IMG/VR virus record: IMGVR_UViG_3300011113_000415
Length of the DNA: 64,000 nucleotides
Direction: 5' to 3' (one strand)
DNA from: a virus
Taxonomy: Duplodnaviria; Caudoviricetes
Notes under the pieces: generated by a model
The model's database searches: none
Told to the model about the DNA's origin: nothing
The model's input: only the letters and a program-made list of their open reading frames with translations
Program-made: the position numbers and the translations under genes
Shown: piece by piece, positions 33,608 to 37,666 of the stretch
Layout of the letters: every line of letters starts with the position of its first letter
Numbering within the stretch: the stretch's first letter is position 1

Positions 33608-34819
33608 ATGTCAGAACAACTATTAGAAAGTCGCTGGGGCGAAACCAAAGAAGCATTGCTTGAAGGTTTGAACGGTTCCAAGCGCAACTCAATGAGTGTG
33701 ATCCTCGAAAACACTCGCAAGTACTTGAAGGAAAACGCAAGTTCTGGTTCAACAGGCAGTGGCAATATTGCAACATTGAACCGTGTGATTTTGCCAGTGA
33801 TCCGACGTGTAATGCCAACTGTTATTGCTAACGAGTTGGTAGGCGTTCAGCCAATGACAGGTCCAGTTGGTCAAATCCACACTCTGCGTGTGCGTTATGC
33901 CAACTCTATGACTGACAACAGCCCAGCACAAACTAGTGTTGCCGCTGGTCAAGAAGCATTGAGCCCATTCACTATTGCTCAAGCATACTCTTCAGCATCT
34001 AGCGTGACAGCAGGTACTGTTGACTCAACACAAAACATCTACTCTGGTGCTAACACATCAGTTCTAGAAGGTTCTGGTGGTCGTCAAATTAGCGTGCAAA
34101 TCTTGAAGCAGGCTGTTGAAGCCAAGACTCGCAAGTTGCAAGCACGTTGGACATTTGAAGCCGCTCAAGACGCACAAGCAATGCATGGTATCGACGTTGA
34201 AGCCGAAATCATGGCTGCTTTGGCTCAAGAGATCACTGCTGAAATTGACCAAGAGATTCTTTTGAGTCTCCGTAGTTTGGCCGCAACTGAGTACACATAC
34301 AACCAAGCAACCGTTTCAGGTACTGCTACATTCGTTGGTGACGAACATGCCGCATTGGCAGTTTTGATCAACCGTGTTGCTAACTTGATCGCACAACGCA
34401 CACGTCGTGGCGCAGGTAACTACGCAGTTGTATCTAGTGCAAGTTTGACAGTGTTGCAAAGTGCAACTACTAGTGCATTTGCACGTACTACAGAAGGTAC
34501 ATTTGAAGCACCAACAAACACCAAGTTTGTTGGTACACTCAACGGCGCAATGCGTGTGTTCGTTGACTCTTATGCTAGTGACACAACTCCTGTGTTGGTT
34601 GGCTACAAGGGTTCTTCAGAAGCAGACGCTCCAGCATTCTACTGCCCATACATCCCATTGATGTCAAGCGGTGTTGTGTTGGATCCAACAACCTTTGAAC
34701 CAGTCGTATCATTTATGACACGTTATGGCTTCATTGAACTCACTAACACTGCCTCTTCATTCGGCAATGCTGGTGACTATGTCGGAGAAATTGCCGTTTC
34801 TAACCTGAGTTTTTCGTGA
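33608..34819 (+). CDS. gp23: Major capsid protein
   Basis: RRVMPTVIANELVGVQPMTGPVGQI, KQAVEAKTRKLQARWTFEAAQD, EITAEIDQEI, YCPYIPL, FMTRYG. Confidence 0.97.
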   Translation: MSEQLLESRWGETKEALLEGLNGSKRNSMSVILENTRKYLKENASSGSTGSGNIATLNRVILPVIRRVMPTVIANELVGVQPMTGPVGQIHTLRVRYANSMTDNSPAQTSVAAGQEALSPFTIAQAYSSASSVTAGTVDSTQNIYSGANTSVLEGSGGRQISVQILKQAVEAKTRKLQARWTFEAAQDAQAMHGIDVEAEIMAALAQEITAEIDQEILLSLRSLAATEYTYNQATVSGTATFVGDEHAALAVLINRVANLIAQRTRRGAGNYAVVSSASLTVLQSATTSAFARTTEGTFEAPTNTKFVGTLNGAMRVFVDSYASDTTPVLVGYKGSSEADAPAFYCPYIPLMSSGVVLDPTTFEPVVSFMTRYGFIELTNTASSFGNAGDYVGEIAVSNLSFS

Positions 34820-34869: not shown

Positions 34870-34898
34870 TTGACAAAAATATTAAAAAAGTTTATATT
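34870..34898 (+). promoter_or_regulatory. Possible sigma70 promoter pointing antisense into the TPR-glycosyltransferase gene
   Basis: TTGACA-17 nt-TATATT. Confidence 0.35.
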
Positions 34899-36054
34899 AA
34901 ATCTTAAACCAACCCAAGAACTTGGCGATTTTATTCATAGGACCTGACCAGTCGCCATAGCGTTCTTGACGAAACAGTCTAGCAGTGGTATACCAAGGCG
35001 AGTCATCGCGATTCTGCATCCAGCGCCAGCAGTGGCCATAAGCATTGAGTGGGATCCATAACGGACGTCCCATGGCACCTGCTAGATGTGCGGCAGCAGT
35101 GTCTACTGAAATCACAAGATCCATGTGATGCATGAGTGCGGCTGTGTCAGCAAAATCGTTTATGGTGCCTGGGTAGCACTCTACTCCTGCTGCCTTGACC
35201 GTAGCAGTGTCTTCATCCGACGCATCTACCTGCAGGTTGATCCATTGATGTTCAGGAAATCGCCGCACCAGTTCGGCCATGGTCTCAGCCGGCATGCTTT
35301 TGTGTTGGTTGATCCAGGAGTCTTTGCGTCCTGACCATGCAATGCCAATTCTCATGCGTTGTTTTGGGATGCCCAGGCGTTCAGCCCAGGCCTGTACTCT
35401 AGCCTGATCAGGTTGCACATATTGCAAATAGTGTTGTACATTCTCCAGTCGCATGTTCAGCAGTCTTGGCAGGCTCATCATGGCCACCCAGTAGTCAAAA
35501 TCACCTATCACATCTTCAGTATTGGCAGTCACACTCAGGATGGCTGGGGGTGTGTTGATCAACAGGGGCTTGATACTGGGACTCACATGCAGTCTAATTT
35601 TGGCACCCCGGTCTTGCAAATTGCCACAGAATCTCAAAAACTGAATTTGATCTCCCAATCCCTGCTCACCTATGACCAAAATGGTCTTGTCACGTAGATC
35701 TTCACCGGCCCATTCAGGTCGGGGCAATCGAGGCTTGGTACCCTCCAGGTGTTCGTAGCGCCAGCGACTTTCGTACAAGCGCCAACCCTGCTCATAGTTG
35801 CCCAGCATGAGATGTGCCACGGCCAGATTGAATTCTGCTGTGACATTTGTGGGATCTATCAGTCGTGCTGTTTCCAAAAAAGGAATGGCACGTTGAGCGT
35901 CGCCCATTTCTCTCAGCACGTTGCCATAGTTGTTGAAACCTGCAAAGCAGTTGAGGTCTTGCACAAAAGCCTGTGCATAGCATGCTATGGCCTGTTCGGG
36001 ACGGTGTTGTTCTCTTGCTTGATTGCCCAGGGCAATTAGATCATCTGTGGTCAT
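34897..36054 (-). CDS. TPR-repeat plus GT-B (GT9-like) glycosyltransferase
   Basis: Three to four TPRs (FNNYGNVLREMG, AEFNLAVAHLMLG); GEQGLGDQIQFLRF; DLVISVDTAAAHLAGAMG; likely start MTTDD 5 nt after a TAAATA box (36060-65). Confidence 0.85.
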   Translation of the reverse strand: MTTDDLIALGNQAREQHRPEQAIACYAQAFVQDLNCFAGFNNYGNVLREMGDAQRAIPFLETARLIDPTNVTAEFNLAVAHLMLGNYEQGWRLYESRWRYEHLEGTKPRLPRPEWAGEDLRDKTILVIGEQGLGDQIQFLRFCGNLQDRGAKIRLHVSPSIKPLLINTPPAILSVTANTEDVIGDFDYWVAMMSLPRLLNMRLENVQHYLQYVQPDQARVQAWAERLGIPKQRMRIGIAWSGRKDSWINQHKSMPAETMAELVRRFPEHQWINLQVDASDEDTATVKAAGVECYPGTINDFADTAALMHHMDLVISVDTAAAHLAGAMGRPLWIPLNAYGHCWRWMQNRDDSPWYTTARLFRQERYGDWSGPMNKIAKFLGWFKI

Positions 36055-36103
36055 CACAATATTTAAATCAATGACAGCACAGCCCAAAATAAACCAATGA
36101 CCA

Positions 36104-36199
36104 TAAATACAGTCAACGCAATTGGGCGTTTTATGCGGCGATTAATACCCACCGCGTAGCGGCTAGAACCCGCATGGGGCTTCTATAAGGAGAAATCAA
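36104..36199 (+). promoter_or_regulatory. Late promoter (TAAATA 36104-09) plus GC-rich structured 5' leader of the 276-aa gene
   Basis: Stems AACGC/GCGTT, ATGCGG/CCGCAT, CCGC-GTA-GCGG and TAGAA-CCC/GGG-TTCTA abut the AAGGAG SD. Confidence 0.55.
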
Positions 36200-37030
36200 A
36201 TGGGAAGAGCACTAAAAATTCAAAAAAACAACGTTGGTTCAGGTAGTACAGTTACCGGTTCCAATCCTGAGGTCACAACCTACAACCAAACTATCTTGAC
36301 AGATGCTGGTTTTCCAAACTTCGGTAGTTTAACCTCACCAGCAACGCCATACAACTCGGCTGACACACTCAATTCTGATCAGTTCCTGGGTGTGGTCGGT
36401 GGTTCACCTACTACCAGCACAGCCAGTGCCACATTCCCAGAAGTGTTGGCAGCAGTCAATATTACTTTAGCAGATGGTACAAGCACTACTGCCGGTGCTG
36501 GTCGTTTGATACGCCAAAAAGGTGCGCACAAGTTCTTGGTGGCCTACACAGCCAGTGCCACAGCAGATGAAAGTTTTATTGTTGGACAGGCCTATCAGAT
36601 TTCCACGCTGGGCACAACCGACTGGCAGGCATGCGGCGCAGGTGCTGATGCCGCAGTGGGTGACATATTCACAGCAGTAGCAGTGGGATCAGGCACAGGC
36701 GAAGGCTATCCAGTCGGCGTATGTGTGTTGAGCAACACAGGCACACCCACAGCCGGCAATATGAGTATTCAATACTCAGTGGGCGACTCAGCCGCTGTGT
36801 ACGCCAGTTATATTACCAACAAATGGATTCGTGACTGGAACGGTATGACTTATGGCAACTACAGCAGTAGCAATCTTGGTGAAAACATCTACTCAAGTGA
36901 AAACTTCTATGTGACCAACTTCTTCACAGACGAAGGCACTGTGACATGGTCAGGTGCAGAAATTATCAACGGTGTGGAAGCCGCAAACGGTTCACTGCAA
37001 TTGGCACAAGTGGTCAACGTTACAAGTTAA
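36200..37030 (+). CDS. Putative virion structural protein (276 aa, Thr/Gly/Ser-rich), function unknown
   Basis: Late promoter, strong SD, own terminator; composition like head decoration/fibre proteins. Confidence 0.65.
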   Translation: MGRALKIQKNNVGSGSTVTGSNPEVTTYNQTILTDAGFPNFGSLTSPATPYNSADTLNSDQFLGVVGGSPTTSTASATFPEVLAAVNITLADGTSTTAGAGRLIRQKGAHKFLVAYTASATADESFIVGQAYQISTLGTTDWQACGAGADAAVGDIFTAVAVGSGTGEGYPVGVCVLSNTGTPTAGNMSIQYSVGDSAAVYASYITNKWIRDWNGMTYGNYSSSNLGENIYSSENFYVTNFFTDEGTVTWSGAEIINGVEAANGSLQLAQVVNVTS

Positions 37031-37043
37031 TTTGTAACCTGTC

Positions 37044-37078
37044 AACATCCTCCTTGCTAACTACAAGGAGGATTTTTT
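37044..37078 (+). terminator. Rho-independent terminator
   Basis: ATCCTCCTTG-CTAACTA-CAAGGAGGAT followed by a T tract. Confidence 0.8.
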
Positions 37079-37666
37079 ATGACCAGAGCATTTGTATTGG
37101 GCAACGGCATCAGCCGACAAGCAGTTGATCTAACTCAACTGCAATCATTGGGTAAAATTTACGGCTGTAACGCACTCTATAGAGATTTTGAACCTGATTG
37201 TCTTGTGGCCACTGATAGACCCATTGCTGAAACTATTCAAAATTCTGGATATAGTATTCGACACAAATTTTATACTCGCAAGCCCTTACACGGGTTGGGT
37301 GCATTGCCTGTACCTAAAAAATATCATGGCAACAGTTCAGGACCTATTGCAGTTGCCCTTGCGGCACTAAACGGAAATCAAACGGTATACATGTTGGGTT
37401 TTGATATGGGACCTACAGAAAATCAACGGTTTAACAATGTGTATGCCGGCACAGATTTTTATAAAAAACACGACGCCGCTCCTACATATACTGGTAACTG
37501 GGTCCGACAATTGTGTGCGATTGCCCAAGATTTTCCGCAAACTAACTTTGTAAGAGTATGCGGAGCAACCACAGCAGACATAAAAGAGTTAAAAGTGTTT
37601 AGTAATCTACTTCATATACCCCTACAGATGTTTTTAGATCGTGTGGTAACTGGTCAAGATCTCTAG
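37079..37666 (+). CDS. Putative Maf/DUF115/CstII-like (GT-A variant) sugar transferase (195 aa)
   Basis: AFVLGNGIS...IYGCNALYR...NSSGPIAVALA...VYMLGFD pattern shared by sialyltransferase/Maf-fold proteins. Confidence 0.55.
   Translation: MTRAFVLGNGISRQAVDLTQLQSLGKIYGCNALYRDFEPDCLVATDRPIAETIQNSGYSIRHKFYTRKPLHGLGALPVPKKYHGNSSGPIAVALAALNGNQTVYMLGFDMGPTENQRFNNVYAGTDFYKKHDAAPTYTGNWVRQLCAIAQDFPQTNFVRVCGATTADIKELKVFSNLLHIPLQMFLDRVVTGQDL

Follow-up and report, generated by a model that had tools for sequence, protein, structure and literature searches.

A freshwater-2 RNA leader ahead of a late gene near the major capsid gene of a giant T4-like lake phage

What kind of RNA element forms the leader of a 276-aa gene in an uncultured phage, and does this leader switch between alternative structures? 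The stretch of viral DNA analyzed here (64,000 nucleotides in total, called the window below) includes a gap at positions 36055-36199 that separates two divergent genes. A first-pass annotation had proposed that the leader within this gap supports mutually exclusive pairings, as would be typical of a translational riboswitch or an autoregulatory leader that binds a protein.

Family membership and parts of the leader

A covariance-model scan with Rfam provides the first part of the answer. The leader matches RF02980 (freshwater-2) at positions 36114-36202 on the + strand with a score of 69.3 bits versus a gathering threshold of 49.9, and hence the initial statement that no known family was recognised no longer holds. 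The match spans model positions 1-84 of 84 (E = 1.7e-08 for the 64-kb window) and is the single Rfam match above gathering in the whole window. There is very little room for doubt that the leader at 36114-36202 is a member of the freshwater-2 family, and the element is already known as an RNA family rather than being new.

Rfam lists freshwater-2 under the type Cis-reg only, and the consensus consists of three successive hairpins followed by a ribosome-binding site and an AUG that are located inside the model. The leader in the window likewise resides directly 5' of an ORF with a ribosome-binding site and AUG, and its three hairpins are backed by compensatory changes. It shares with the Rfam family the same three hairpins, the UUAUGC.G / C.GCGUA stem, the UAGAAC loop, and an aquatic, phage-like setting, and there is no difference in structure. 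The family presumably originated in the comparative screen of Weinberg et al. 2017. The main text of that paper (PMC5737381) makes no mention of freshwater-2, and a literature search found no paper that names the motif. To the existing description can now be added a T4-type late promoter, a position after gp23, a single-copy state, and an association with the MGRP protein family, as well as marine members and covariation within P2.

The leader comprises roughly 85 nt of 5' untranslated RNA and follows a T4-type late promoter box, CATAAATA, read directly at 36102-36109 on the + strand. At the 5' end of the RNA, the Rfam alignment places the P1 hairpin (36114-36131), in which AACGC pairs with GCGUU across an AAUUGG loop. 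Next is P2 (36132-36158), as assigned from the Rfam alignment and covariation, which pairs UAUGCGG with CCGCGUA, carries a 13-nt loop ending in ACCCA, and includes a conserved U.G wobble (36134-36156). P3 (36159-36173) adjoins P2 without a spacer; its arms GCGG (36159-36162) and CCGC (36170-36173) enclose the 7-nt loop CUAGAAC (36163-36169), which is nearly invariant in the alignment of relatives. The linker that follows, AUGGGGCUUCUAU (36174-36186), varies in length as judged from alignments of relatives and gap counts, and the gap counts reveal that the linker word GGRCUUC is missing in about 40% of members. A ribosome-binding site, AAGGAG (36187-36192), is found within the Rfam model 7 nt 5' of the ATG that begins the 276-aa gene at 36200.

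The words from which the initial pairing scheme was built are all present when the sequence is read directly: ATGCGG (36133-36138), CCGCGT (36152-36157), CCGCAT (36170-36175), TAGAACCC (36164-36171), GGGGCTTCTA (36176-36185), TGGG (36123-36126), and CCCA (36148-36151). That scheme overlooked the P1 hairpin (36114-36131) and the true P3 hairpin. Likewise, the leader had been called GC-rich, but its GC fraction of 0.51 versus 0.45 for the window is not notably high. The folding energy of the lone leader sequence is uninformative, being no better than that of shuffles (z = -0.14).

Several additional candidate features of the leader were considered and set aside. An AUG inside the 5' arm of P2 opens an 8-codon frame (36133-36159 of the window) whose stop is the conserved UAG of GCGUAG. 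Among relatives, this upstream frame is unconserved (its stop falls in the P3 loop in 46, at GCGUAG in 20, and elsewhere in 35), and the encoded peptide is likewise unconserved. P3 as a mimic of an anticodon loop or T-loop, and a likeness of AUGC/GCGUAG to the 16S 690 loop, were dropped because the matching parts covary or do not fit these motifs. A search of the 64-kb window for second operator sites found none.

One conserved fold and its candidate alternatives

Relatives of the leader were assembled by several routes. A DNA pattern for the conserved core retrieved over 120 IMG/VR loci. Another 167, of which 80 were kept, came from a protein search that used the product of the 276-aa gene as query, and two further searches with short family members provided 115 more. 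A covariance model was then built from 150 leaders, with the caveat that covariance-model alignments lean towards the structure of the model itself. Because the set retrieved with the DNA pattern fixes most of P2, the count was repeated on loci found through protein (the protein-ascertained set).

Among 101 diverse copies, 94.2% of the cells in the three-hairpin fold are paired, versus 25-48% after the partners have been shifted by 1-3 columns. None of 500 shuffles of these copies reached the covariation score of 0.617 (versus about 0.07). In the protein-ascertained set, 89.3% of cells are paired, and pairs altered on both sides number 13 of 16 in that set and 10 of 16 in the 101 copies. Altogether, more than 170 distinct relatives support the fold, and all three hairpins covary strongly. 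The structure can be assigned to the + strand RNA because of its G.U pairs, which include the conserved U.G of P2.

The three hairpins differ in what is held constant. For P1, all 5 pairs are altered on both sides among relatives and 84% of cells are paired; the hairpin is weak or absent in some members. P2 is 100% paired in the protein-ascertained set, where 4 of its 7 pairs are altered on both sides (pair 5 occurs as CG54/GC13/UA3/AU1 and pair 6 as GC29/UA24/AU18) and the U.G wobble is retained in 69 of 71 leaders. P3 is 97-99% paired, and all 4 of its pairs covary. The four outer pairs of P2 and the loop of P3 are nearly fixed across relatives, and CUGGAAC and CUAAAAC are the only loop variants seen besides CUAGAAC.

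Thus, the family has one conserved fold, not a set of competing folds: P1, P2, and P3 in succession, and then an open A/U-rich region. The original claim of a structured leader that links a late box to the ribosome-binding site ahead of the 276-aa gene is borne out by the Rfam match and the covariation, and this leader probably is a cis-acting, conserved 5' leader of that gene. One sub-clade (L273-L276, L284, L307, L309, L368, and L370, at about 528-618) carries P2 as UAUGGGG/CCCCGUA, and its short, purine-rich P2 loops (ACAGAA, ACAACA) do not have the usual CCC. These RNAs are natural variants that should be useful for probing the role of the loop.

How, then, should the other pairings be viewed? 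The proposed pairing of ATGCGG with CCGCGT is the real P2, and it is the sole member of the initial scheme that has been retained in evolution. Its proposed competitor, ATGCGG with CCGCAT, is paired in 60.8% of cases among 101 relatives, versus 61.4% in shuffles, and the 3' arm of P3 covaries with its own 5' arm and not with P2. The hairpin formed by TAGAACCC and GGGGCTTCTA scores similarly (65.2% versus 63.8% in shuffles), and about 40% of members do not have its 3' half. A TGGG/CCCA pseudoknot between the P1 and P2 loops does no better (40.5% versus 41.2%), and pairing of the P2 loop with a UGGG in the linker was rejected on the same grounds (49.4% versus 50.6% in shuffles). With alternative partners that do not covary, the proposal of mutually exclusive pairings has no counterpart in the family.

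These results bear directly on the possibility of a two-state switch, in which AUGCGG with CCGCAU, or UAGAACCC with GGGGCUUCUA, would compete with the conserved hairpins, and a metabolite or a protein would select between the states. Taken singly, the present sequence does favor the TAGAACCC/GGGGCTTCTA hairpin, whose computed stability exceeds that of P3 (-8.7 versus -5.3 kcal/mol), and CUUCU (36180-36184) can pair with AGGAG, such that the two G's of the ribosome-binding site have a predicted unpaired probability of 0.07. Moreover, a GAA/UUC complementarity persists in the clade that bears the linker. The switch-like appearance of the leader arises because the nearest-neighbor model favors the alternative hairpin over P3 together with the CUUCU pairing to the ribosome-binding site in this sequence. 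Across the family, however, the alternative pairings remain at the level of shuffles, the linker word is lost in about 40% of members, and the P3-loop variant UAAAA disrupts the alternative hairpin with no compensation. In 97 leaders, the ribosome-binding site is predicted to be just as accessible as in controls with shuffled linkers, and the candidate occlusion of this site by the CUUCU word did not differ from shuffled linkers. A two-state switch is therefore highly improbable. The original suggestion of a translational riboswitch fares no better, given that no conserved pairing over the ribosome-binding site was found across the family and that the sequence between P3 and the ATG includes no terminator. 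Nor does the arrangement of the hairpins favor a riboswitch: they follow one another without a junction or an internal-loop pocket, and a conserved expression platform is absent. The switch-like look of single sequences that is not conserved among relatives urges caution against over-reading such leaders as riboswitches.

A different long-range contact would involve the start codon itself. CCCA in the P2 loop (36148-36151) might pair with UGGG of AUG-GGN (36201-36204), forming a pseudoknot that gates initiation. These segments are pairable in 88.1% of cells, versus 49-54% at one-column slides, and A/G variation opposite U is compatible with pairing. In addition, a G preceding CC is enriched when the second codon is GCA (3 of 8 leaders versus 3 of 143). 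However, both sides are nearly invariant and shuffles reach 87.4%, and the G enrichment is confined to one or two clades. In the protein-ascertained set, four base pairs are possible in only 63% of leaders, and about 13% (with loops such as ACAGAA and ACAACA) form two at most. Native loops score barely above shuffled ones (3.5 versus 3.1), and we regard such gating of the start codon as quite unlikely.

The promoter, the genomes, and the downstream gene

The conserved fold described above is consistently preceded by a late promoter. Of 101 relatives, 94 carry TAAATA in the 40 nt that precede P1, usually with 5-9 nt separating it from the first paired base; most of the remaining 7 have it overlapping the assigned P1. 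Using the start-site distance of T4 late promoters in general, the RNA is predicted to start at about 36115, at or within a few bases (about 0-4 nt) of P1. The gap also holds a second late promoter, and the divergent pair shares one interval (36055-36110): a TAAATA box on the minus strand (36060-36065) serves a gene for a TPR and GT9 glycosyltransferase protein (34897-36054, minus strand, Pfam), and CATAAATA on the plus strand serves the freshwater-2 leader. In one RNA run (as contigs), only short conserved pieces of the leader are covered, and these are present in DNA runs as well.

The surroundings identify the source as an uncultured giant T4-like lake phage. The gene for the gp23 major capsid protein is located at 33608-34819 on the + strand (Pfam Gp23, 2.2e-97), and Pfam matches reveal that the window also encodes the gp20 portal protein and the gp21 prohead protease. 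Comparison of gp23 places jumbo myoviruses closest among cultured phages, with Vibrio phage 2.275.O and Pseudomonas phage PA5oct as examples (64-66% identity). Nearly identical DNA is found in viral metagenomes of lake, river, and freshwater origin, and related contigs reach 318-343 kb. A gp23 homologue is present upstream on the same strand in 123 of the 123 related loci in which gp23 was found. It either is adjacent to the gene that carries the element or is separated from it by the antisense TPR-GT9 gene, and in 80 related loci the latter is the gene immediately 5' of the leader.

The leader yielded only chance matches of 20-26 nt in a cultured phage collection, and neither Vibrio phage 2.275.O nor PA5oct carries the motif after its capsid gene. 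Among prokaryote genomes (596 Gb), 52 pattern matches included 3 real ones, all of which reside on MAG contigs with the look of binned jumbo-phage DNA. Two of these (L246 and L229, of 148 and 183 kb) belong to Haliscomenobacter sp. MAG EUL_031 and total about 331 kb; they may be either a hint of the host or a binning artefact. The third (L244) is from Rickettsiales MAG MED657, and this match, together with Tara homologues, indicates that the family is also marine.

Freshwater-2 is essentially a single-copy element. The 64-kb window has one copy, as does each of three nearly complete phage genomes (91-99% complete, 318-343 kb), whose other late genes do not have the element. A few phages, such as L009, have two copies before tandem paralogues. 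In L009, both tandem MGRP paralogues carry a freshwater-2 leader (L009:1430-1530 and L009:3149-3247). In L355, L360, and L362, the motif precedes the first tandem gene only (at about 77-171), and the second gene (at 601) is preceded by a late box of its own and then a short, AT-rich leader. The distant family members L302 and L326 have a late promoter and no leader. The leaderless genes of these two, along with the second tandem genes, show that the element is dispensable and acts as an accessory.

Could the hairpins simply constitute a constitutive leader, one that senses nothing, stabilizes the late mRNA, and keeps the ribosome-binding site open for an abundant virion protein? The 5'-terminal location of P1 is as expected for such a role, as are the strong AAGGAG site with its A-rich spacer, the lack of systematic occlusion of this site, and the fact that some relatives manage without the leader. 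However, stabilizers need no fixed sequence, and yet leaders whose downstream proteins have diverged share an almost unchanged P2 base, U.G wobble, and P3 loop. Furthermore, a single-copy element tied to one gene and absent from other late genes is not what a general stabilizer would predict. We judge a purely constitutive leader to be a possible but somewhat unlikely explanation.

The gene that follows provides additional clues. Freshwater-2 precedes one gene family almost exclusively, called here MGRP/MGRA-start, of which the 276-aa gene (P0001, 36200-37030, + strand) was found to be a member by homologue searches. Of 184 pattern matches, 183 lead to an ORF that opens with MGR (170), MAR (12), or MGN (1), and the distance from the end of P3 to the ATG in these 183 instances is 18-33 nt. 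The ORFs after the motif encode 116-512 aa and all belong to one BLAST-linked family. When examined with the covariance model, all 79 P0001 relatives for which upstream DNA is present have the element, and 65 of 144 family proteins have diverged below BLAST detection from P0001. Codons for the basic N-terminus, MGRP(L/I)K, change synonymously while the amino acids are conserved, and the family is variable in the C-terminal part. Overall the proteins are acidic (median pI 4.6; P0001 has a pI of 4.24 and a net charge of -11), although residues 1-12 carry +3.

Structure prediction gives a partial view of these proteins. The core of P0001 (residues 81-215) is modeled by AlphaFold with confidence as all-beta, and a 116-aa member is predicted to form two small beta-barrels (pLDDT 86.5); by these models, the family is built of tandem small beta-barrels. 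Searches of solved structures with both models returned background only (Foldseek E >= 0.16, VIA Z <= 5.0), including a weak fold likeness to Tudor, KOW, and SH3 domains (Z at most 5.0, within the background range). Matches in BFVD are just uncharacterised phage proteins plus one from Agrobacterium phage Atu_ph07, and a protein atlas provided no useful lead. No Pfam family or PHROG was found for the MGRP family, all of its homologues are named "hypothetical protein", and four family proteins and the P0001 core have no match among cultured phages.

Position, late expression, variable C-terminal parts, and acidity together suggest that the MGRP protein is a virion-surface or capsid-accessory protein. 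Some additional observations touch on its nature. A 373-aa member (L084:993-2111, minus strand) ends in a PA14/GLEYA carbohydrate-binding (lectin) domain at residues 242-344, which is consistent with surface exposure. The MGRP gene product is 53% Ser, Thr, Gly, Ala, and Asn. Within 34897-37666 of the window, its gene is flanked by the TPR-GT9 gene and a gene for a 195-aa protein with a match to phrog_30607 and a weak one to a sialyltransferase PHROG, and this arrangement recurs in 77-80 related loci. The residue content and the recurring neighbors raise the possibility that the MGRP protein is glycosylated.

A protein of this type might also control its own synthesis. In T4 gp32 and the P22 scaffolding protein, there is a precedent for feedback logic whereby unassembled MGRP product would bind its own P2/P3 and repress translation. 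Freshwater-2 would then be the operator of an assembly-coupled feedback system in which the tandem-beta-barrel protein contacts P2/P3 via its basic N-terminus. The RNA and the gene are strictly co-inherited, the MGRP(L/I)K terminus is both conserved and basic, and the predicted barrels are weakly like Tudor, KOW, and SH3 domains, a set with some nucleic-acid-binding members. Against this stand the overall acidity of the proteins, fold matches that do not rise above background, and tandem pairs in which the second gene does not carry the leader. The proposal of an operator for assembly-coupled feedback is on balance unlikely. If true, MGRP synthesis would be matched to capsid production, and both a new RNA-binding protein family and a function for an orphan Rfam motif would be at hand.

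Possible roles and comparison with known systems

Our best guess, which we offer tentatively and with less than even confidence, is that P1 shields the 5' end of the mRNA and that P2 and P3 serve as a module by which a trans-acting factor recognizes this particular gene. The transcript made from the late box (36102-36109) would begin near the first base of P1, and this hairpin would protect the message against 5'-end-dependent decay. A protective role for P1 is probable based on its variable sequence and 5'-terminal position. The base of P2 (UUAUG...CGUAG, with the U.G wobble) and the CUAGAAC loop of P3 would serve jointly for recognition, which is probable given that these parts are invariant in sequence even where the proteins are too diverged from P0001 for BLAST to detect. 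The trans-acting factor would probably be a protein that binds P2/P3 and sets the translation rate or the mRNA lifetime of the virion-module gene after gp23. This factor could be encoded by the phage or by the host, or it could be the basic N-terminus of the product of the gene itself; the acidity of the downstream proteins argues against simple autoregulation, despite the charge of +3 carried by the first 12 residues. Counting against the proposed mechanism, the leader is dispensable in some members, and P1 is weak or missing in some. Even so, a leader that may bind a protein, as initially suggested for this locus, is a live reading.

Regardless of mechanism, the description of freshwater-2 has become sharper and the orphan motif has been made testable. 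The element can now be viewed as a leader dedicated to a particular late gene, the one that follows the major capsid gene in uncultured aquatic phages of the giant T4-like type.

Three types of known leaders invite comparison. The preQ1-I and guanidine-III riboswitches are similarly short, reside in the 5' UTR, and have a loop able to reach a downstream segment. However, freshwater-2 does not have a supported pseudoknot, a conserved expression platform, or a link to metabolic genes, and its hairpins stand in a row with no pocket-forming junction. Stabilizing hairpins of the ompA 5' UTR type are closer in one respect, since P1 lies about 0-4 nt from the predicted 5' end and keeps its pairing as its sequence varies, but such stabilizers have no need for invariant P2 and P3 sequences like those found in freshwater-2.

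The operator of T4 gene 32 begins with a 5' pseudoknot, after which unstructured A/U-rich RNA extends to the ribosome-binding site. Freshwater-2 differs in having no supported pseudoknot and no sequence or Rfam relationship to this operator. Moreover, T4 gene 32 encodes an early protein that binds ssDNA, whereas the gene that freshwater-2 precedes is a late gene of the virion module with an acidic product. The likeness between the two is one of architecture only: each presents a structured 5' module, then an open A/U-rich initiation region, and each is specific to its gene.
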